From: Rhizobium sp. Q54
Lineage (GTDB): Bacteria > Pseudomonadota > Alphaproteobacteria > UBA7879 > VGCX01
Reading direction: 5' to 3'
NCBI GenBank assembly: GCA_945870825.1
Contig: CAMBTM010000001.1
Location: forward strand, 26,926-90,925
DNA: 64,000 nucleotides
Part shown: one piece after another, positions 580-17,177 of the stretch
Layout: each line of letters opens with the position of its first letter
Position numbering within the stretch: position 1 is the first letter of the stretch
Notes under the pieces: generated by a model
The model's input: only the letters and a program-made list of their open reading frames with translations
Told to the model about the DNA's origin: nothing
The model's database searches: none
Program-made: the position numbers and the translations under genes

Positions 580-3500
580 ATGCGCATCGACAGACGATTT
601 ACGAAGGACTCTTTAACAACTTATGCAGGCATCGCCTTCAAAAAAACGTCAAGCGAAATCAAAAATCCTGATGGGACGATTGTTTTTAGCCTCAAAGATT
701 TTGAAGTCCCTGAATCATGGTCCCAAGTTGCTGCCGACATTATTGCCCAAAAGTATTTCAGAAAAGCAGGCGTTCCTGTTTGTCTTAAAACGCTAGAAGA
801 AGCGGGGGTTCCTGAATGGCTATGCCCTTCTGTCCCCGATCAAGAGGCTCTTGAAAAGCTCCCCCTTGAGGCGCGCTATTCTTCTGAGACATCGGCCAAG
901 CAAGTATTCAACAGGCTCGCCGGCACCTGGACCTACTGGGGCTGGAAGCATGGGTATTTTGATACCGAAGCCGATGCCAAGACTTATTATGACGAAATGT
1001 CCTATATGCTTGCAACCCAAATGTGTGCACCAAATTCTCCGCAATGGTTCAACACAGGTCTTCACTGGGCCTATGGCATTACAGGACCTGCCCAGGGACA
1101 TTCTTATGTGGACCCTGAAACTGAACAATTACTGCAATCCACCAGTGCCTATGAACGCCCCCAACCCCACGCCTGCTTTATCCAAAGCATTCATGATGAC
1201 TTAGTCAGTGAGGGTGGGATCATGGACCTTTGGGTCCGAGAAGCCCGTCTTTTTAAATATGGTTCTGGAACCGGATCCAACTTTTCAAACCTGCGGGGCA
1301 AGGGCGAGTCCTTGTCAGGTGGCGGAAAATCTTCTGGCCTCATGAGTTTCTTGCGTATTGGTGACAGGGCTGCTGGGGCCATTAAGTCGGGTGGCACCAC
1401 AAGGCGTGCCGCCAAGATGGTCTCCGTTGATGTGGATCACCCCGATATTGAAGAATATATCAATTGGAAAGTTGTTGAAGAACAAAAAGTCGCAGCCCTT
1501 GTTGCTGGATCTAAAATCACCAAGAAGTACGTCGACACCATCATGACGGCATGCTATGCCGTGGATAGTGACAAAGCCGAAGTTGATCCCCATAAAAATC
1601 CTGCCCTCAAAGCAGCCATCAAGGATGCCAGAAAAAGCATGGTCCCTGATAGCTATATCCAACGGACCCTGCAACTTGCATCCCTTGGAGAAAAGTCTAT
1701 TGATTATAAAACCTATGATACCGACTGGGATTCCGAAGCTTATGGAACTGTATCGGGACAAAACTCCAATAACTCTGTGCGCGTCTCTAATGATTTTTTG
1801 GACCGTGTGGAAAAAGGTACTTCTTGGGATTTGATCAACCGAACAGATGGAAAAGTATCAAAGACTATTCCTGCAAAAGAACTTTGGCATAAGATTTCTT
1901 ACGCAGCTTGGGCATGCGCTGACCCTGGCATCCAGTATGATACCACCATTAACGAATGGCATACGTGCCCCCAACATGGGCGGATCAAAGCATCCAACCC
2001 TTGTTCTGAATATATGTTTTTGGATGATACAGCCTGTAACTTGGCATCTTTAAATTTGATGAAATTTTATCAGCCTGCTATCAATGGAAAACCCCAATTT
2101 GATCTAGAAGGATTCGAACACGGAACACGTCTTTGGACCATGGCCCTTGAAATTGCGGTTCTCATGTCCCAGCTCCCTTCCAAAGAAATTGCCCTCGGAA
2201 CTTATAAATATCGGACACTGGGCCTTGGCTTTGCAAATATTGGCGGCCTTTTGATGGCTTTTGGTATCCCTTACGATAGTCCTGAAGGTCGGGCTATCGC
2301 AGGGGGTATTGGGGCGTTGATGACAGGGGTTTCTTATACAACCTCTGCTGAAATGGCAAAGGAACTAGGTGCCTTTAAAGGGTACGCAGGCAATGAGAGG
2401 GATATGTTGCGGGTCATGCGTAACCATCGGCGTGCCGCCTATGGTAAAGCAGAGGGATATGAAAAATTAGAAATTGCTCCTGTCGCCCTTGATATTGATC
2501 ATTGTGCCATTCCATACTTGGCAGTTCATGCCCAAAAAGCCTGGGATGCTGCCCTAGATCTTGGGGAACAATATGGCTACCGCAACGCCCAAACAACCGT
2601 TATTGCCCCAACAGGGACCATCGGCCTTGTGATGGACTGTGACACGACAGGCATTGAGCCAGACTTTGCTTTGGTGAAATTCAAGAAATTAGCGGGTGGC
2701 GGATACTTTAAAATTATCAACCAAATGGTCCCCATGGCCTTAATTAACCTTGGATATACCCAAGACCAAGTGGATGAAATCATTCAATATGCCGTCGGTC
2801 ATGGATCCTTGAAAAATTGTCCTTCTATTAATTACGACCTTTTAAAGCAAAAGAAGTTTGGGGACAGGGAAATTGACATTCTTGAAAACAACCTCAAGAC
2901 AGCCTTTGATATTAAATTTGTCTTCAACAAATGGACCTTTGGGGAAGATTTTTGCACAAAGACCCTGGGGTTCACCAAGGAACAATTGGATAAACCGACC
3001 TTTAACATCCTAGAGGCTTTGGGCTTTTCCAAGCAAGACATTGACGCGGCTAATGCCTATTGCTGTGGCACCATGACCTTAGAACAAGCCCCTTACTTAA
3101 AGGCGGAACACCTGCCTGTCTTTGACTGTGCCAATCCTTGTGGTCGCATCGGCAAGCGTTTCTTATCGGCTGAAAGCCATATTCGGATGATGGCTGCTGT
3201 TCAACCGTTTATTTCAGGTGCCATTTCAAAGACCATCAACATGCCCAATCATGCAACCATTGAAGACTGCCATGAGGCTTATATGTTGTCCTGGAAGTTA
3301 GGTCTTAAGGCCAATGCCTTGTACCGCGATGGATCAAAATTATCTCAGCCGTTGAATTCCGCCCTTCTCGAAGAAGAAGATGAGGAAGATAACAATATAG
3401 AAGAAACGTTGATGTCCAAAACACAAACAGAGCGCACAACCCATGTTGTCGAACGCGTGGTAGAGCGGATCATCAATCAAGCGGCAAGACGCAAACTCCC

Positions 3501-4221
3501 CGGACGACGCAAGGGATACACCCAAAAAGCCACCATCGGGGGCCATAAGGTTTATCTTCGAACCGGTGAATATGAGGACGGCCGTCTTGGGGAAATCTTT
3601 ATTGATATGCACAAAGAAGGGGCGGCTTTCAGAAGCCTCATGAACAACTTTGCCATGGCCATTTCCATCGGTCTTCAATACGGCGTACCACTAGAAGAAT
3701 TTGTCGAGGCCTTCACTTTCATGCGCTTTGAACCCGCAGGTGTTGTAAAGGGGAATGATGCCATCAAGATGGCGACATCCATTTCTGACTACGTATTTCG
3801 AGAACTGGCTATTTCATACCTCGGCCGAACGGATTTAGCCCACGTCCAAGCGTCCGATCTTTTGCCTGATAGCGTTGGAGGTGATTCACAAGGTGAATCT
3901 TCATTAGCAACGGAATCCATCACACCGATGGCCAGCAATGGGTATATCCGCCGGAAACTTTATGTTTTGCATAGTGATACGCAGCAACACGATGACAATC
4001 CTTTTGTGACGAGCGCTGTGTTGAAACAAACCGAATCAACGGTGCGAAAAACAGATGCAGCCCAAGAACAAAGTGCGGACGAAAAAGCTGAAAAAATCAA
4101 AGCTGCCCGCCTGCAAGGCTATGCCGGAGATGCATGTGGTGATTGTGGAAACTTTACACTCGTTCGTAATGGGACATGCCTCAAGTGTAATACCTGCGGC
4201 AGTACGACGGGTTGTTCTTGA
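580..4221 (+). CDS. nrdJ: Vitamin B12-dependent (class II) ribonucleotide reductase
   Basis: 1213 aa, long alphaproteobacterial NrdJ architecture with a C-terminal CxxC...CxxC zinc ribbon (CGDCGN...CLKCNTCG). Overall similarity to class II RNR judged by eye. Confidence 0.9.
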
Positions 4222-7545: not shown

Positions 7546-8563
7546 CTAATCCAAAAAGGGCTTCAAAAGTGCCATTCCCTTTTGGATTTGGGGCTCAAGG
7601 TAAAGACCATAAGCGCCCTTGGGACGCCTTGCTTTTTGGCGTTCAAGTTTTTTAAATCCTTGACGTACCAGATAACACCCAAAGTGTAACCGGTTCAATA
7701 AACGGTATTTCTCAAGTTTTGCCAAATTTTCCGGTGTAACGGCCCCAAAATAAGCCTCCACCATTTGGTGTTCTTGCTCAGCTGTAAAGTCCATCTGTTC
7801 GGCTAATGAACCTAAATCCTCAAAAACATCCCCATGACTCACTTCTGACCAGTCGATCAAGGCAACGCTACCTCCCACAATAATGTTGGACGCTTGAATA
7901 TCACCGTGCACCACGTGGGTAAAAGAAGGCTTTAAAGAGTCTAAGAATTTTTCAGCCTTCACTAATCTTTCTTTCATATCAGGGGCGACTTTCAACAGTT
8001 CCCTCAATCGCCTCAGGGAACGATACCGCAATGATTTATTATCAAAATGAAGAGGCAATGTTGGAAGCAAGGCATGAGAGGCCTTTAGTTTTTCCATAAA
8101 CACCTTGAGCGTCTCTGGATTCTTAAAATAATCTTGATCCGGATGATGCCCTTCCAAAAACTCTGTGATCATCACTTGGTAACGAGGATCATGCCAAAAA
8201 AGCTTGGGATAACCCCAAACAGCCCCTAAGGCCTTTGTTGTTTCAATGGTCCGTCGACGTTCTGCAATAGGTGTTTTTTCATAGAAAATCTTGATAAAAA
8301 GTGAATGTTCCTGGCCTTTCACATCCAAAATACGCTGTTTGCGTTTCCCGTGGGATGATTCACCCAAAAAATTTGAATGCCCCTCTAATGATTGATGCCC
8401 TGGAAAAAGATGCTCGGTCCCTTGTATAATGTGGGTCCGAACAGCGTTAATAAACCCTGGCCTTAAGGTGCGAGGAACCGGATAACTCCAGCAAGGCAAT
8501 AACAGGATGAGAACAAAAACAAGCTTAAAGGGTGCGCGCCACCGACTTAACTTCAGAACACTC
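7546..8563 (-). CDS. Phosphotransferase-family kinase (APH/choline-ethanolamine kinase-like fold)
   Basis: Brenner motif [11 protein letters not shown] and DWSEVSHGD are present. The start is uncertain: candidates are ATG at 8613 or 8589, GTG at 8580, or TTG at 8563, and every one overlaps the 3' end of infB. Confidence 0.6.
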
Positions 8564-11077
8564 AATGATATCTCCTTCACGTAAATCATGATAATTTTCA
8601 AAGGCCATGCCACATTCTAGATTATTCTTCACTTCTTTTACTTCATCTTTGAGCCGCTTTAGGGATTTCAACGGACCTTCATGAATCACAACATCGTCTC
8701 TCAAGATACGCACCTTAGCACCGCGTTTAACAACACCTTCTGAGACATAACATCCAGCAATGGTGCCTACTTTCGAAATCTTGAAAATTTGACGTACTGT
8801 CGCACGCCCCAAGAATTCTTCTTGAGAAACAGGCGACAACATGCCCCCCATCATCGCTTTGATATCGTCAATAATCTCATAAATGATCGAATAATACCGA
8901 ATATCGAGATGCTTTTGTCGAGCAAGCTCCCGTGCTTGGGTATTGGCCCGTACGTTAAACCCAATGATCAGAGCACTGGACGCAGATGCCAGGGAAATAT
9001 CAGTTTCATTAATACCACCCACGCTGCAATGCAAAACACGCACACTGACCTCTGCTGTGGCTAATTTCTGCAAACTTGCACTGATGGCCTCAGCGGATCC
9101 TTGAACGTCGGCCTTAATGACCACTGCCAATTCCTTAGAATTGTTTTGTGTTGAAAAGAAGTTCGCAGCGGTAGCCGTTTCTTGAACAGCTGCTTTTTCC
9201 CGCTTTTTCAAACGACGATGGTCAGCAACTTCTCGGGCCTGAGCCTCATCTTTTACAACAAAAAAGGTATCGCCTGCCAAAGGAACGCCGTCAAACCCAA
9301 GGACTTCGACGGGGAATCCTGGACCAGCGCCTTCAACACGATGGCCCTTGTCGTCCACCAAGGCTCTGACTTTTCCAACTTCTATCCCTGCCACAAAAAT
9401 ATCGCCCGTCCGCAAAGTTCCTTTTTGAATCAAGATGGTCGCAACAGGTCCACGGCCTTTTTCAATTTTAGCTTCAACCACAGATCCCACCGCATCGCGG
9501 TCCGGATTAGCCTTCAAATCCAAAACATCCGCTTGAAGCAAAATAGCATCCGTTAGCTTATCGAGATTCATTTTTTTGGTTGCAGAGACTTCAACTGATA
9601 AAACATCTCCCCCCATTTGTTCCACAACAAGTTCGTGTCTTAAAAGCTCCGTCCTGACACGATCCGCGTCTGCAGCGGGCTTATCCATTTTGTTAATCGC
9701 AACAATGATTGGAACCCCTGCGGCTTTGGCATGGTTAATCGCCTCAATAGTCTGTTCTTTCAGTCCATCATCGGCAGCAACCACCAAGACAACGATATCC
9801 GTCACATGGGCCCCGCGGGCCCGCATTTCTGTAAAGGCAGCGTGACCAGGGGTGTCAATAAAGGTAATCTTATCCCCAGAATCGAGTGTCACTTGGTACG
9901 CCCCAATATGTTGGGTAATCCCTCCAGCTTCGCCCGCAACCACATCCGTTGTCCGCAACGCATCCAGCAAAGACGTCTTTCCGTGGTCCACGTGGCCCAT
10001 AATAGTCACAACAGGTGGACGGGCTTTTAAATCTTCAGGCTTATCAATCGATCCAATTAACGCTTCTTCAAGGTCCGTATCTGACACACGTTTCACTTTG
10101 TGTCCCAAATCTTCTGCAACCAATTGGGCTGTGTCGGCATCAAGAACGTGGGTGATTGTTGCCATGACCCCAAGTTTCATCAAAGACTTGATCACTTTAG
10201 CCCCTTGTTCTGCCATACGGTTGGCAAGATCTTGGACTGAAATCACGTCAGGGATAATGACTTCTCTGGATACTTTCTCTAAAGGATTAAATTGTTCTTG
10301 AAGTTTCTTTCGTTCTTTCTCGCGGGCCCGTTTGATGGACGAAAGACTGCGAGTCCGTTCATTTTCTTCTTCTTCCAAGGCCTCTTCAACGGTCATCTTT
10401 CCAATGACACGCTTGTTCTCGCGGCGATTGACGGTAACTTTTTTGACTTCATAAAGCTGATGCTTTTTCGTCTTTTCACTTTCTTCTGTTGCGTCATCAT
10501 CAAGATCTTTTTTTGTCTTGATTACTTTCGCTTCCAATGGTTTCTTAGCATTTTCGGGCAACACCATCGGGTCTTGGATTGCAGGATCTTGCACCGGTTG
10601 GTCTTCAACTGCTGGAGGCTCTGGTGTTTGCTTCGCGTACTTTTCTTCCATCAATTTCTTGATTTCAGCATCCCGGCGCGTCATCTCATCCCGCCTAGCT
10701 TCCTGCTTTTGAACAAACTGATTGGCCCGCTGAAGCGCTTGAAGACGGGCATCTCGTTCCTCAGATGTCAAAAATCCATCATTTCTTTTGTCTGTCGATG
10801 GTCTTTGGTGGGGCTGTGAAGGCTGAATAGTGGACGATGTTTCTTTTGACGGGTCAGGTTGTACACCTTGGACAGGTGACTGCGTAGACTTTGTTCGTTT
10901 CTTGACTTCAACGACAACTGTTTTGGATCGTCCCACCCCTGTTGTGCTGCGTTGTCCCCGATCAGCCCCTACAATATCCTTCAACACTAACTTGGATGAT
11001 AGTGTTAAAGGGGCCTTACCTGAATCCTTTTTAACAGAATCAGGCGCAATGGAACCGTTGTCGTTTTTATCACTCAT
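8525..11077 (-). CDS. infB: Translation initiation factor IF-2
   Basis: 850 aa with a charged, low-complexity N-terminus. G-domain [20 protein letters not shown] and NKMD motifs are present. Confidence 0.95.
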
Positions 11078-12611: not shown

Positions 12612-12774
12612 TAAACTATCTTAAAAACAAAAGGCGGACCAACGTAACGTCTCGTCCACCCCTCTTACGTACAATTTTTCCAGATTATAAGGCTTTTCCA
12701 AAAACCTTCAAGCAGAATTTCATCAACCACTAAGAGAAAGATTTTTGATTTTAACCAGGGAGGCGGAAATCTCT

Positions 12775-12817
12775 CACTCAACACTAAATTACATTTAGTG
12801 TAACTTAGTGTTGAGTG
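12775..12817. repeat. Nested inverted repeats (CACTCAACACTAA...TTAGTGTTGAGTG with inner CACTAAA-TTACA-TTTAGTG) in the nusA / orphan-protein divergent region
   Basis: Read directly from the sequence. Confidence 0.55.
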
Positions 12818-12913
12818 GTACAAGTATCACGCTCTGCGTCATCCATATGGGTAAGCCAAAAAATCACATTCACTGCAGTTGAAAATATAAATAAAAATCC
12901 CTACATTGCATTT

Positions 12914-15736
12914 ATGCGCTATTTACTGACATTTATTATATTTATATTTTCCATCCATAGCCACGCTATGGAGGATTTAGCTGCATTGGTGCAGGCACGG
13001 TTTCAAGGCCGTGTGCCCAATCACCTTTTACCCTCTCGCTTTGCAGGATATGAACGTATCGCAACAAACATAAGGCTTTTAGGGGGTCGAAGCGTCCTTG
13101 AACCTTCGAGTAAAGGGATGATACCCTATCCTATGCCGCAGCCAGCGATTATGTTATCAGATCCTGTCTTTGGAACACCCCTTGTCCCCAGAAATGCAGC
13201 CGATGCTTTGCTTTTCTTCCTATTCCCTTATCCCAATATTTTTCAAGCGACCACCCTTGGGTCTGATCCAATCTCTAGGTTAGAACCAAAAACCTTGGGC
13301 CAACTGGCAAGACTTTGTGAGGAATATGAAGGGAGTCTTGCTGCCACCTACTCAGATACCCAAGTAATGGCTTTGGAAGAAGACTTCACAAAAGCGTTAT
13401 TAAAGGCCTTAAACTTTGATGCCAAAAAGTATGAACGTCTAGAGCCTAAACTAGATGCCTTTAATCGATGGATAACGGTCCAAGCTTTTGCAAGGAAATT
13501 AGATACAATGGCTGAAACAGTATCAGATGATGAGAGAGCAGTTGCAGCCCTCGAACACCCTGATTTAACATTGCCTCAGTGCGGTTTGCGGAACATGTTC
13601 AGAGGTTCACAAGAATTTTGGGGCATTTCTGGTATTGAACTTGAAACCTTAAGGCATCCATCCAATGAACACTCAGAGGTTCTCCAGTCTTTTGCAGAAA
13701 ACGTTTTGAATGAAGCATCCGTTAGTTTTTCCACCTTTGAAAATAGGGTGAAGGATTTTGGGAAAATGAGGCTCATTAATCTTATGGTCCGTGGCGTGGT
13801 GGATCAGCATTATGAGGCAGATATGAATGGTCTTAATCTTCAATCGCGCTTGGCCCTCTTCTTTTGGAAGAAGTACCAATGGGCTTTGCAAGAAGGAAAT
13901 ACAACCCCCATGATGGCGTTTTATGCGCACAGACTTGGCATTGATCCAATAGAAGGGCCTATGAACATCGTCCTATTACCCTTGCCCTTCTTGACCTTCG
14001 ACGATATAAAAAGGGATCCAAGACAATTTTTCTTACTTTCTTTGCCTGAGCAGGAAAAAATTATCAAAGAGTGTGCCGGCGCTTTCATCCCTATCAACAT
14101 GCACGAAGGGAAAGTTGAGGACAAAAAATTTTCTGATTGTATGGAAACAGCCATTTTTAACCTTGCAACAGCAATGATCCATAGGGTTGAAGCGGGGAAA
14201 GTTATCCTAGACCCAAGCTTTTTGCCTGACTGCCCTTTGAAAACCTATTTAGTAAAAAACCCTGGGGATTTCCATGAGTATGCGACCAAGCATTCTGAAT
14301 GGGCCAACGCTGTTGCAGGTATTCCAAGCGTTAAGTATCTTAAAACAACCACTGATGGGAAAGGATGTGAAGTCCGTCCTGGTCTTATTTCAACCCTTAA
14401 TGCTTTGTCTTTTCTTTTTGGCATGAAAGACCCTCTTCCCTATAAAAAAGATGCCTCCATTATGGAACGGTTGGCGCAAATTTCCACATTTATCCAATCA
14501 ACAGGTTATGCTGTGACACTTGTACTGGATGAAAAAAATAAACTTGAATGGTCTCCTTTAAAAAATGACTTTTCAGGACTATTCTCTTTAAAAAAGGATA
14601 CAGATACCGGGGTATTTGATACCTCCTTTGGACATGGTTATCTTAAATGGGTAACTGGCAATAGCAGTCGTGTCATCTCTCTCTTTGATCACGCCAAAAC
14701 TCTTGATGCCCTATTAACCACAGCCCCGCTTGTTAACAATCGAGATGCCTTTGATGCCTACATGAAAAAGTTCAGGATTCTTAGCGGCAGAGTTCATCAT
14801 TTAGAAGCCCATCTTTTTCAAATGGACTTAACGAGCCTTGAAATGCAAAAGGCTGTTTTCTTAGAAACCTACAATCAAAAATCTCTTGAAAGCCTAGCTC
14901 TTTCCATTATTCAACGGTTGGATGGAACTAACACTTGGCCCGCGGCTTGCGACTTTAACTTTCTGGACGGCGGCAATGGCACGCCATCAGATGAATTCCT
15001 TCATGCATTTGCTACAATACATCCAATGACTTTTTCTATCTGGAATATATTCCGGTCATATAGAACACCTGATGCTTCCATGTCTTTTTGGCATTGGTGT
15101 CGAGATACCCACAAAGAATGGATGATAGAAGCAGCGCTCCCCCTTCTCAAAGATTTTGGCACACAATGTGTGCCAAATAACGCTCAGGATCCTAGCCTTC
15201 TGTTACCCTATTTAACAAGGATGCCATCTCTTGAAACAGCACAGTTTTATGGGTGGGATGGGCCTTATTGTCTTAGGATGGAAGATACAAATCCTTTCCA
15301 TACGCCTGTCTTTGATTTTTTAACAACTAAAAATTTCATAAAAGATATTAGGGGTATTAGCCTGTCTCCAAAAACTGCTTTTCATATGATGGCACAATCT
15401 GCGAAACTCAGTCGACTCAGATTCGTCCCCCTCAATGAGACTGGATGGACAGAAGAAATTTTGAGAAAATTTATTGATCGATTTTTGACACGTAATACCT
15501 ACGGAGAGAGTAAATATCTAGAAGTGTCTTTTTTCTGGGAAGAATCAAAAATTCTAGATTTCATGAGATCTTTAAACCCGCAATACTTAAAAGATAACCT
15601 CTTTTATGCTAATAGCATGCCAGCTCCTTTAGGTGAATACGATCCAGAGACAACTGTGTATGCAAGAATCCTCAAAGAAATTCAAGACAGAGAATCCACT
15701 GCTGCTACCTCGGCCGAAGGAAAAACAGAAGACTAA
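12914..15736 (+). CDS. Large (~940 aa) secreted protein of unknown function
   Basis: Long ORF with a signal-peptide-like start MRYLLTFIIFIFSIHSHA at internal Met 12914. The upstream 33 codons of the ORF overlap the palindromic intergenic region and are probably non-coding. No motif I can assign. Confidence 0.55.
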   Translation: MRYLLTFIIFIFSIHSHAMEDLAALVQARFQGRVPNHLLPSRFAGYERIATNIRLLGGRSVLEPSSKGMIPYPMPQPAIMLSDPVFGTPLVPRNAADALLFFLFPYPNIFQATTLGSDPISRLEPKTLGQLARLCEEYEGSLAATYSDTQVMALEEDFTKALLKALNFDAKKYERLEPKLDAFNRWITVQAFARKLDTMAETVSDDERAVAALEHPDLTLPQCGLRNMFRGSQEFWGISGIELETLRHPSNEHSEVLQSFAENVLNEASVSFSTFENRVKDFGKMRLINLMVRGVVDQHYEADMNGLNLQSRLALFFWKKYQWALQEGNTTPMMAFYAHRLGIDPIEGPMNIVLLPLPFLTFDDIKRDPRQFFLLSLPEQEKIIKECAGAFIPINMHEGKVEDKKFSDCMETAIFNLATAMIHRVEAGKVILDPSFLPDCPLKTYLVKNPGDFHEYATKHSEWANAVAGIPSVKYLKTTTDGKGCEVRPGLISTLNALSFLFGMKDPLPYKKDASIMERLAQISTFIQSTGYAVTLVLDEKNKLEWSPLKNDFSGLFSLKKDTDTGVFDTSFGHGYLKWVTGNSSRVISLFDHAKTLDALLTTAPLVNNRDAFDAYMKKFRILSGRVHHLEAHLFQMDLTSLEMQKAVFLETYNQKSLESLALSIIQRLDGTNTWPAACDFNFLDGGNGTPSDEFLHAFATIHPMTFSIWNIFRSYRTPDASMSFWHWCRDTHKEWMIEAALPLLKDFGTQCVPNNAQDPSLLLPYLTRMPSLETAQFYGWDGPYCLRMEDTNPFHTPVFDFLTTKNFIKDIRGISLSPKTAFHMMAQSAKLSRLRFVPLNETGWTEEILRKFIDRFLTRNTYGESKYLEVSFFWEESKILDFMRSLNPQYLKDNLFYANSMPAPLGEYDPETTVYARILKEIQDRESTAATSAEGKTED

Positions 15737-15808
15737 GTCCCTCTCCCCTTCTGGGACGCCAGGGCATGGCATGAAAAAATCTCTTTTTTGCCAACGCGTA
15801 CCCATTCT

Positions 15809-15845
15809 CCTTGTAAATCAACCATGCGATAGCTGATTTACAAGG
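15809..15845. repeat. 12-bp perfect inverted repeat CCTTGTAAATCA-N13-TGATTTACAAGG downstream of the orphan gene
   Basis: Seen directly. No T-run follows, so it is not a canonical terminator. Confidence 0.5.
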
Positions 15846-15866
15846 AAACCCCCTATGAACCTGTCC

Positions 15867-15970
15867 AAATTTGCAATCAAAATGCAAATTTGTCCGGCTT
15901 TTTCTGTTTTTTCTTGCAATATGGCATCGCTAATGCCATATTGAGACTCAAAGTGGCATTTCAGGTGCCA
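15867..15970 (+). promoter_or_regulatory. Palindrome-rich promoter region of the DUF4143 ATPase gene: AAATTTGCA-N7-TGCAAATTT plus two TGGCA-N7-TGCCA sites (centres 15930 and 15962, 32 bp apart)
   Basis: Three separate perfect palindromes lie within 105 bp, ending about 30 bp before the ATG at 15999. The first TGGCA site extends to the 11-bp arms CAATATGGCAT / ATGCCATATTG. Confidence 0.5.
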
Positions 15971-15998
15971 TTTTGCGTGTAGCAAAAAAGGGAAGACT

Positions 15999-17177
15999 AT
16001 GCACTTTATTCCAAGGTTTTTTAAGGATCCAGGCCAAAGTTTCTTTCTTTTTGGCCCCCGTGGCACAGGAAAATCAACCCTCATCAAGGCTCTCTATAAA
16101 GACGCCATTTGGATTGATTTATTAAAACCTGATGTGCTCCGTAGTTACCTTGCGTACCCAGAACGTTTGGGAAATCTTATTGAAGGTCAACCAAGTATAA
16201 AAACCATCGTCATCGATGAAATCCAAAAAGCCCCGCAATTATTAACGATGATCCATCATCTTATTGAAAAGAAAATAGGACTCAAGTTCATCCTCACAGG
16301 ATCCAGTGCCAGAAAGATTAAACGGATGGATGCTGATCTTTTGGGAGGGCGCGCTATTAAACGAGAGCTTTATCCTTTTATGGCAGCAGAACTTGGCGAT
16401 CAGTTTGACCTGAAGAGAGCTCTAAACAGGGGCCTCCTCCCCTTGTTAACAGCCTCACCTAATCCTGAAGATACGCTTACAACTTATAGTGCCCTTTACA
16501 TCCACGAAGAAGTTCAAACGGAAGGATTTATAAGAAATCTAGGGGATTTTTCAAGATTTTTAGAGGCTATTTCTTTCTCTCATGGCGCCATATTAAACAC
16601 GGCGAACATTGCAAGAGAGTGTGAAATCAAAAGAAAAACCGTTGAAAATTATTTAAACGTTCTTGAAGATCTTTTATTATGTTTTAAGGTGCCAGTATTC
16701 TCGAAACGGGCCACACGTATGCTGAGTGTTCATCCAAAGTTTTATCTTTTTGATGCAGGTCTTTATCAAGGGCTAAGGCCCCGGGGTATACTCGATAAGC
16801 CTGAGGAAATCGAAGGTGCTGCACTCGAAGGACTTGTTGCGCAGCATTTAAGAGCCTGGGTACAGTATACAAGTCAAAAACATAGTCTCAATTTCTGGCG
16901 AACACGATCAGGATCAGAAGTTGACTTCGTTGTATATGGAACCCTGGGATTTTGGGGAATAGAAGTTAAAAATACGACAAAAATCCGTCCCGAAGACTTA
17001 AAATCGTTGGAATCTTTTTTGGAAGAATATCCAGAGGCTACAGGATTCCTTCTCTATCGTGGGTCAGAACTTTTTAAAAGAAATAATATCTTATGTGTTC
17101 CTGTCGATATGTTCTTAAGAAATCTTGTTCCTGACATAGGACTCTGGGAACATATCCCTACCCCTCTTAAACCATAA
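15999..17177 (+). CDS. AAA+ ATPase, AAA_14 + DUF4143 family (COG1373-like)
   Basis: Walker A GPRGTGKST and Walker B IVIDEIQ are present. The C-terminal region is typical of the DUF4143 family. A diverged paralog lies at 25864. Confidence 0.8.
   Translation: MHFIPRFFKDPGQSFFLFGPRGTGKSTLIKALYKDAIWIDLLKPDVLRSYLAYPERLGNLIEGQPSIKTIVIDEIQKAPQLLTMIHHLIEKKIGLKFILTGSSARKIKRMDADLLGGRAIKRELYPFMAAELGDQFDLKRALNRGLLPLLTASPNPEDTLTTYSALYIHEEVQTEGFIRNLGDFSRFLEAISFSHGAILNTANIARECEIKRKTVENYLNVLEDLLLCFKVPVFSKRATRMLSVHPKFYLFDAGLYQGLRPRGILDKPEEIEGAALEGLVAQHLRAWVQYTSQKHSLNFWRTRSGSEVDFVVYGTLGFWGIEVKNTTKIRPEDLKSLESFLEEYPEATGFLLYRGSELFKRNNILCVPVDMFLRNLVPDIGLWEHIPTPLKP

Follow-up and report, generated by a model that had tools for sequence, protein, structure and literature searches.

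The promoter region of a gene for an AAA+ ATPase-nuclease was analysed in a 64,000-nucleotide stretch of DNA assigned to Rhizobium sp. Q54 (assembly GCA_945870825.1, contig CAMBTM010000001.1, positions 26,926 to 90,925). This whole stretch is called the window below and all positions refer to it. The gene (15999-17177, + strand) encodes a protein of 392 amino acids (aa) that matches the PADLOC candidate PDC-S01, and it is preceded by two palindromes, here named operators O1 and O2, which interlock with a putative promoter. The best explanation of the region is that it serves a horizontally mobile cassette of one gene as its self-contained promoter and operator. Its palindromes occur beyond chance, travel with the gene, keep their spacing and their position in the promoter, and co-vary with the recognition helix of the encoded protein. 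We hold it very probable that they form a protein-bound cis-regulatory DNA element of the ATPase gene. Negative autoregulation of the promoter by the protein's own helix-turn-helix (HTH) is the reading favoured here, with a probability of roughly two in three. It is the simplest account because the gene alone always accompanies the operator and because the positions of the HTH predicted to read the bases change with the operator.

Palindromes and promoter upstream of the ATPase gene

The initial annotation had described three palindromes packed upstream of the ATPase start codon at 15999, and all of them were confirmed by reading the sequence and with a repeat finder; none is assigned to a strand. 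O1 (15917-15943) is a perfect palindrome, CAATATGGCAT (15917-15927)-CGCTA-ATGCCATATTG (15933-15943), with the core TGGCA-N7-TGCCA at 15922-15938. O2 (15949-15975), CAAAGTGGCAT-TTCAG-GTGCCATTTTG, has its core at 15954-15970 (TGGCA at 15954-15958, N7, TGCCA at 15966-15970) and is 70% identical to O1 in the 27-nucleotide (nt) register of 15949-15975. The third palindrome, site 1 (15866-15892), reads CAAATTTGCA-N7-TGCAAATTTG, with inner perfect arms AAATTTGCA (15867-15875) and TGCAAATTT (15883-15891) on either side of the N7. Its half-sites, TTGCA, are one base off TGGCA and have the 5-N7-5 geometry of the operators, and its centre lies 51 base pairs (bp) upstream of that of O1. The motif had been described as open to dismissal should it occur at random frequency, and its count in the window proved to be far above expectation: TGGCA-N7-TGCCA is found twice, as O1 and O2 (0.12 expected), and two or more matches were seen in none of 100 shuffles of the window. 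The 27-nt pattern CAAnnTkGCA-N7-TGCmAnnTTG, with at most two mismatches allowed, picks out just site 1, O1 and O2 (0.24 expected).

The operators are interwoven with promoter-like sequences. A -35-like hexamer, TTGCAA (15914-15919, + strand), doubles as the outer flank of O1, and a -10-like hexamer, CATATT (15937-15942, + strand; CATAAT in the family consensus), overlaps its right flank, so that O1 fills the 17-bp spacer between the two hexamers. All that separates O1 from O2 is the 9-bp TGAGACTCA. The conserved centre TGAG-A-CTCA (15942-15950, no strand assigned) lies between them and is the symmetry centre of a unit of ~65 bp. Judged from the position of the -10 hexamer, transcription would start at ~15948-15951, and O2 would then occupy about +5 to +30 of the transcript, just past the start. 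A Shine-Dalgarno-like AAGGGAAG (15988-15995, + strand), read directly from the sequence, ends 3 nt before the ATG.

Among 34 non-redundant two-palindrome elements of the family, the consensus is TTGCAAAaTGGCATCGctAATGCCATAATGAG-a-CTCAAAaTGGCATtagcgaTGCCAtTTTGc, a unit with near-perfect two-fold symmetry about TGAG-N-CTCA. This centre is invariant or nearly so in genome-derived loci that were not chosen on their DNA. The -35 hexamer is likewise conserved (T31 T32 G32 C32 A34 A31 among the 34). The main break in the symmetry is that TAA occupies the left inner flank (in 25-31 of the 34) whereas the right one is AAA, the mirror of TTT; as a result the CATAAT -10 hexamer is present on the promoter side alone. 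In single-palindrome loci, where the -10 sits elsewhere, the flank is the symmetric TTT. With a sigma-70-like promoter counted at a hexamer score of at least 9/12, 24 of the 40 K-type loci have one, in most cases TTGCAA-17-CATAAT.

The 5-nt spacers of O1 and O2 are exact reverse complements in 10 of the 34 elements, four of them with pairs that differ in sequence from the rest (CGCAA/TTGCG, AGCAA/TTGCT, CAACG/CGTTG and CGATG/CATCG), and direct copies in six. A permutation test of the O1/O2 spacer complementarity was not significant (88 vs 78.8 +/- 5.8), CGCTA/TAGCG being the family consensus. In view of this test and of the six direct-copy loci, the kinship of the spacers is read as probable concerted evolution of the two units through intra-element exchange rather than as selection for pairing. 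An upstream open reading frame (ORF) starting at A/G/TTG inside O2 was also considered and discarded: its frame and stop are unconserved, and the same preference for "never C" holds at the mirror position in O1.

Distribution of the operator unit and co-variation with the recognition helix

The ATPase protein has thousands of homologues, the best 120 of which are 60-79% identical and come from very diverse phyla. Eighty loci were retrieved by protein similarity, one genome per species, and they cover Alpha-, Gamma- and Deltaproteobacteria, Legionellales, Babeliales, Chlamydiae, Elusimicrobia, Planctomycetota, Gemmatimonadota, Nitrospirae and others. Nearly all have a related palindrome within the upstream 100 nt, and thus the conservation upstream of orthologous ATPase genes, which the initial annotation had proposed as a check on itself, was borne out across phyla. 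The unit shared by homologous loci is TTGCAA-aaTGGCAT-N5-ATGCCATAAT-GAG-N-CTC-aaaTGGCAT-N5-ATGCCAtttTGC, with a constant 32-bp spacing. Homologues carrying it are 54-79% identical to the window protein, belong to more than 10 phyla and lie in unrelated neighbourhoods. The distance of 32 bp between the centres of O1 (15930) and O2 (15962), already remarked upon from the window alone, is exact in about 30 K-type loci, a near-invariant phasing that fits cooperative dimer binding. Perfect 5-N7-5 palindromes with at least two G/C per arm were found at -100 to +6 in 50 of 102 loci, compared to 3-8 per ~100 loci in control windows placed farther upstream or inside the gene. Single copies illustrate the mobility of the cassette. 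The gene in L001 (77% identical), which has an unknown gene on one side and an aminotransferase on the other, is preceded by cTTGCAAATTGGCATCGCAAATGCCATAATGAGTCTCAAATTGGCATTTGCGATGCCAATTTGC, equal to the unit of the window, and in L004 (79% identical) a decayed unit is retained next to a Tn3 transposase and resolvase (L004 1-2826).

The association was also recovered from the opposite direction. A metagenome collection was scanned for TGCCA-N3-TGAG-N-CTCA-N3-TGGCA, on DNA alone, and yielded 56 loci. About 14 of these lack flanking similarity and appear to be chance matches; ~14 is also a rough guess of the chance number for 18 fixed bases, assuming a collection of ~1e12 bases. A DUF4143 homologue begins 7-75 nt downstream of 36 of the 42 genuine elements, and at 186 or 251 nt in two further cases; the remaining elements are at contig ends or are orphans. 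The orphans have their own features: in L119 (640-1198) a full operator unit is located 50 nt upstream of an unrelated 154-aa ORF with its own Shine-Dalgarno, in L094 (~10294) a full unit lies between two convergent genes, and L098 (~6299) and L103 (~4629) likewise carry full units with no DUF4143 gene. Such units may be remnants, or other genes may have taken them over as promoters.

The central motif had no match in viral contigs. These contigs contain one distant protein homologue (40% identity), with TGTAAT/ATTACA palindromes upstream. The plasmid collection holds two distant homologues only, and the conjugative plasmid pSn of Simkania negevensis (L144, 1-1958) carries a 36%-identical homologue between two integrase genes. 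Upstream of the pSn gene is the palindrome AAAATGGAA-N4-CTCCATTTT, the spacer being N4 rather than N7.

Lineages differ in how many units they have: L020 and L039 contain three in tandem within the upstream 130 nt, spaced at 32-bp intervals, and L016 has units at -128, -96 and -45. Site 1, which had been counted among the packed palindromes, falls outside the conserved unit of the family, and L016 alone has a site at the equal distance of 51 bp. Site 1 is a weaker, lineage-specific extra site. On some contigs several AAA_14/DUF4143-type paralogues stand side by side (L139 11635-14592; the upstream copy in L081).

A second and commoner architecture is found mostly in Deltaproteobacteria and other phyla. 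Here a near-consensus TTGACA-16/17-CATAAT promoter precedes a single palindrome, which the -10 hexamer, ending at -33 to -30, directly abuts. The palindrome is followed by TTTTGAG-N-C(T/G)CAAA and then by the start codon, where ATGG and the next two bases constitute a third half-site overlapping the start. Codon 2 tracks the upstream half-sites: ATGGAA (Met-Glu) goes with TGGAA/TTCCA, and ATGGCA (Met-Ala) with TGGCA/TGCCA. Such recruitment of a coding position to match the operator is strong evidence that selection acts on the repeated half-site itself.

The encoded protein provides a candidate reader of these half-sites. It matches the Pfam families AAA_14 (E = 3.7e-20) and DUF4143 (E = 1.1e-32), both over the gathering scores, and the PADLOC hidden Markov models PDLC04790 (E = 5e-55) and PDLC04789 (E = 2e-43) place it in PDC-S01 (COG1373). 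DUF4143 is listed within the PD-(D/E)XK superfamily (PMC3424549), and PDC-S01 is described as a fusion of an ATPase with a PD-(D/E)XK domain and as a defence candidate that is not validated (PMC12988326). It ranks as the fourth most common (candidate) defence system across all prokaryotes, with ~39,000 systems in the survey (Archaea 9,986; Bacteria 29,494) (PMC12988326).

An AlphaFold2 model built on a 70-sequence alignment reached a mean predicted local distance difference test (pLDDT) score of 89 and a predicted template modelling (pTM) score of 0.90; a single-sequence run reached pLDDT 36. The model consists of an AAA+ domain (1-135), a lid (138-174), a winged HTH (~181-250) with helix-helix-helix-strand-strand topology and an alpha/beta PD-(D/E)XK nuclease domain (~253-374). 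The nuclease residues E307, D309 and E322-x-K324 are invariant, as expected of a fusion of a P-loop ATPase and a PD-(D/E)XK domain with catalytic residues intact. Among the nearest folds found with Foldseek, the top one is 2qby_B, an archaeal Cdc6/Orc1 bound to origin DNA, and archaeal AAA+/winged-helix ATPases are also included; a PDB sequence search returned nothing beyond Walker-A-level matches. According to the model, the protein is an AAA+ (ORC/STAND-like) ATPase with a winged HTH and a PD-(D/E)XK nuclease. The HTH coding region (16593-16670, + strand) specifies residues 199-224, LNTANIARECEI-K211-R-K213-TVENYLNVLED, with the K211 codon at 16629-16631. These residues have the classical HTH pattern, with sub-threshold profile matches to GerE, HTH_36, HTH_11 and Sigma70_r4_2. 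The two helices of the HTH span 201-208 and 212-224 in the model, and the predicted recognition helix begins with residue 211.

Residue 211 varies with the operator. Eighty-two loci were classed by half-site, TGGC(A/G) or TGGA(A/G), and mutual information with this class was calculated over the 392 alignment columns. Residue 211 ranks at the top with 0.927 of 0.984 bits, followed by residue 2 (0.757 bits, the start-codon effect) and residue 174 (0.64 bits). At loci with TGGCA, residue 211 is K in 34, N in 6, G in 2, R in 1 and S in 1; at TGGAA/TGGAG loci it is E in 32 and D in 1, plus one G and one R. In a neighbour-joining tree made with the HTH and the N-terminus masked, three sets of TGGCA lineages, L102 (N), L093/L100/L105/L133 (N) and L050/L053 (S/G), are nested among E211/TGGA(A/G) lineages, and the association is therefore more than one deep split. 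Other operators are accompanied by other changes in the same stretch of the protein. Four chlamydial loci with CGCCA-N7-TGGCG have K-R-(S/T)-T-V (K213 to S/T), L082 with TTACA-N7-TGTAA has S-R-S-T-V, and L073 with TTGTA-N7-TACAA has K-R-E-T-V. The homologue on the viral contig (TGTAAT/ATTACA) has A-R-S-T-V, and that on the Simkania plasmid, whose palindrome is given above, has D at 211.

Autoregulation weighed against other explanations

Under negative autoregulation, dimers of the protein would bind, via their own HTH, the 5-N7-5 palindromes AAAaTGGCAT-N5-ATGCCAtTTT. Occupancy of O1 would cover the 17-bp spacer between TTGCAA and CATA[A/T]T, and O2 would be bound exactly three helical turns (32 bp) downstream, right after the presumed transcription start. 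Joint and probably cooperative occupancy of the two sites would exclude RNA polymerase from the promoter, and such negative feedback could keep a potentially toxic ATPase-nuclease low and buffered in any recipient host. In the literature on DUF4143, COG1373 and PDC-S01, no account of an internal HTH, a conserved operator, autoregulation, DNA binding, a specificity code at residues 211/213 or a half-site at the start codon was found.

Several observations weigh against this reading. The promoter hexamers of the window are weak (score 8/12), and a generic promoter and terminator scan of the region called none, the hexamers being under its threshold. Orphan elements without the gene exist (L094, L098, L103 and L119). 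L063 combines G at position 211 with TGGAA sites, although this is a neutral exception. Phylogeny partly confounds the co-variation, in which only about 2-3 independent switches between K/N/S and E are seen. The counterpart of the winged-helix domain in STAND NTPases has a regulatory role and does not bind DNA. Finally, the conservation of TGAG-N-CTCA and the frequent reverse-complementarity of the spacers are unexplained by plain binding of an HTH dimer; together with the kinship of the spacers, the conserved centre may allow for an assembly of higher order that involves the entire 65-bp unit.

A more far-reaching form of the autoregulatory reading can be put forward only tentatively, and we consider it rather doubtful. 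PDC-S01 proteins would be sequence-specific DNA-binding AAA+ nucleases with a private code at residues 211/213, the operator pair would be an ATPase assembly platform, and the effector would be its own transcriptional sensor. The four half-sites, phased by 32 bp about TGAG-N-CTCA, would form the platform. A self-silencing, promoter-bound state would pass into an ATP-driven nuclease state when, for example, invading DNA draws off the DNA-binding surface. Private specificities would insulate the paralogues of one genome from each other.

That the palindromes belong instead to a separate, host-encoded dimeric regulator with a regulon of its own, NrdR included, is unlikely. The initial annotation had taken them to be promoter-packed operators of a dimeric regulator, and their operator-like behaviour stands; a separate regulator with a genome-wide TGGCA-N7-TGCCA regulon is not supported. 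The 64-kb window holds no additional site, the element accompanies the gene in more than 10 phyla and in unrelated surroundings, almost always just upstream of a DUF4143 gene (directly so in 36-38 of the 42 genuine metagenomic elements), and the half-sites shift between lineages in step with the gene's own HTH. The spacing of O1 and O2 does equal that of NrdR box pairs, in which two boxes with a 15-16 bp spacer, ~31-32 bp or about three turns between centres, overlap the promoter (PMC12051234). Moreover, the 32-bp-phased GCCATAT repeats that had been connected with the palindromes are indeed present upstream of nrdJ (580-4221, encoding a B12-dependent ribonucleotide reductase of 1213 aa): the 7-mer lies at 463 and 495, within GGTGCCATAT(G/T)TAGTA repeats (459-506) located ~75-120 nt before the gene, with a spacing that fits a NrdR box pair. 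The connection itself fails, as these repeats are direct and not 5-N7-5 palindromes, have NrdR-type spacing and are 15 kb distant from the ATPase gene. The shared 7-mer carries little weight since it is frequent throughout the window (22 vs 7.5 expected from dinucleotide-preserving shuffles), an excess that may reflect codon or dipeptide usage. A Zn-ribbon motif search detected no NrdR-like ORF in the window, a result that says little about the whole genome. A direct promoter function, with each TGGCA-N7-TGC acting as a sigma-54 promoter (-24 GG / -12 GC), is very improbable. The sigma-54 consensus is TGGCAC-N5-TTGC; TGGCAT-N5-ATGC gives GG and GC at the right spacing in both O1 and O2, and O2 would set a transcription start ~20 nt ahead of the ATG. 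The sites, however, have two-fold symmetry and reach past the sigma-54 core (CAA..TTG), the orthologous TGGAA-N7-TTCCA, TGGAG-N7-CTCCA, CGCCA-N7-TGGCG and TTACA-N7-TGTAA have no conserved -24/-12 pair, and the conserved TTGCAA-17-CATAAT fits sigma-70.

The palindromes might also act as RNA, O2 or the O1-O2 repeat forming hairpins in the 5' untranslated region (5' UTR) that control how stable the mRNA is or how it is translated; where a half-site overlaps the start codon, such a hairpin would pair the Shine-Dalgarno and the AUG. O2 does fold as a 12-bp hairpin in the putative 5' UTR (-13 to -16.5 kcal/mol, z = -2.2), single-palindrome loci with TTCCATTTTGAG-N-CTCAAAATGGAA could pair across the Shine-Dalgarno and start codon, and entire 30-nt arms co-vary in L009 and L011. 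We nevertheless judge an RNA function to be quite unlikely, reading the constraint as acting on DNA: O1, located between the -35 and -10 hexamers, would stay untranscribed, G-U and A-C mismatches are unbiased on either strand (local A 3 vs 5; local B 6 vs 7), the O2 hairpin (-13 kcal/mol) leaves the Shine-Dalgarno of the window free, and no Rfam family matched. In addition, GAGGCGCATTATGG in many group-2 loci breaks the putative Shine-Dalgarno/AUG pairing, and RNA pairing does not explain the co-variation with the HTH. Comparably improbable is a role of the ~65-bp inverted repeat in DNA structure or recombination, be it as a cruciform, as a hairpin, or as a site that the nuclease-ATPase targets or on which it is loaded. 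The mobility of the cassette (Tn3 transposase and resolvase in L004, integrases on Simkania pSn), the variable nusA-trmB hotspot in which it resides, the fold resembling origin-binding Cdc6/Orc1, and the spacers that are often reverse complements (10/34) or copies (6/34), pointing to intra-element exchange, are all in keeping with it. Against it, no matching repeat is present at the 3' end of the gene, and hence there are no terminal inverted repeats. The element is always 5' and interlocked with the -35, -10, Shine-Dalgarno and start codon, the cumulative GC skew falls monotonically through 14-18 kb with no origin signature, and the spacer permutation test, as mentioned, was not significant.

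Genomic context and comparison with known systems

The host is an uncultured alphaproteobacterium, the NusA of which is 59-62% identical to those of Rhodospirillales and Micavibrio. In the window the nusA-trmB interval (12612-17114) contains a 973-aa ORF and the PDC-S01 gene. The 973-aa ORF (12815-15736), and not nrdJ, is directly upstream of the ATPase gene, and it has no Pfam or NCBIfam match. It was rejected as a conserved partner: it does not resemble the gene that precedes the cassette in L001, and the neighbours differ at every locus. An inverted repeat at 15808-15846, 70 nt downstream of this ORF, has 18-nt arms TCCTTGTAAATCAACCAT / ATAGCTGATTTACAAGGA that are 89% complementary, a 3-nt loop and no T-run; it may be the terminator or stabiliser of the ORF, or serve otherwise. 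An Rfam 15 scan of 15600-16100 gave at best 23 bits (gathering score 51.5), to an unrelated plastid motif on this hairpin.

The closest available relative, L141 (NusA 86% identical), has the same CorC-Lnt-TrmB ... NusA-IF2 synteny. Its nusA-trmB interval (7555-10000) holds AbiEii and a 186-aa gene, with neither the 973-aa ORF nor the ATPase. Beside the trmB stop (L141 8233-8330) are site 1 with its flank, a TGCCA half-site with the GAGTCTC centre and an O1-like TGGCATTGCTAATGCCA; this operator remnant in an ATPase-less genome implies that the ATPase ORF was deleted in that lineage. The nusA-trmB interval is a variable, defence-type hotspot, and AbiE in the relative is context no more than suggestive of protection against phage by the PDC-S01 gene. 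The 3' end of the ATPase gene overlaps the convergent trmB ORF by 63 nt (17115-17177). Since homology with L141 resumes at ~17158, the last ~six ATPase codons (PTPLKP) seem to be read from trmB-flanking DNA, and the pLDDT of these residues, below 50, fits such an origin.

With this analysis an odd promoter of the window becomes an annotated regulatory cassette in a variable hotspot. For PDC-S01, validation is pending and no mechanism is published (PMC12988326). If autoregulation is true, the first testable activity of the family would be DNA binding, with a specificity code predictable from residues 211/213. Native promoters may self-silence in defence tests, and heterologous overexpression would bypass the control. 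The single-gene spread between phyla would be explained by a cassette that brings its own dosage control, and a compact, portable repressor-operator family that is naturally orthogonal (TGGCA, TGGAA, TGGAG, CGCCA and TGTAA) would be at hand.

Similar circuits have been described in other systems. In restriction-modification systems, dimers of the C protein bind two adjacent palindromes, the C-box, cooperatively at the regulator's own promoter; these circuits are self-contained and mobile, and they set the level of a potentially lethal nuclease after entry into a new host. The ATPase cassette is alike in that paired palindromic operators overlap its own promoter, with O1 in the -35/-10 spacer and O2 32 bp on. 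It differs in having no small Xre-type C protein, the HTH being internal to a 392-aa AAA+ nuclease in a single-gene cassette. The operator sequence and the 32-bp spacing are also different, the neighbours are the 973-aa ORF and trmB with no methyltransferase partner, and there is no sign here of a switch from activation to repression. Type II toxin-antitoxin operators and the WYL/HTH regulators BrxR and CapW likewise place inverted repeats on the promoter of a mobile, potentially toxic locus under negative feedback; there a separate antitoxin or regulator binds the repeats, whereas here the effector itself appears to hold the sequence-specific HTH.

Archaeal Orc1/Cdc6 proteins share the AAA+/lid/winged-helix fold and have repeated dyad sites directly upstream of the binder's own gene. 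Unlike at Orc1/Cdc6 origins, the sites of the ATPase family are interwoven with a promoter of the sigma-70 type and with the start codon, an AT-rich unwinding element between them is absent and the GC skew does not shift; the protein has an extra nuclease domain and is encoded by a single-gene cassette in bacterial chromosomes. NrdR box pairs are matched in the 32-bp distance between centres, but O1 and O2 precede an AAA_14 + DUF4143 gene, not a ribonucleotide reductase gene, and travel with it across phyla. The NrdR-box consensus, of 16 bp, is acaCwAtATaTwGtgt. O1 and O2, compared with it by eye only, differ in sequence and in their 5-N7-5 symmetry, and NrdR, a Zn-ribbon/ATP-cone protein, is unrelated to the HTH of the ATPase. 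Autorepression through palindromic operators would thus be a familiar circuit, with the C protein and its C-box as the probable closest analogue. What appears to be new is the conserved, portable operator family of an abundant candidate defence gene, with the regulator domain inside the effector, and, apparently, both the 211/213 specificity code and a half-site made up of the start codon and codon 2.

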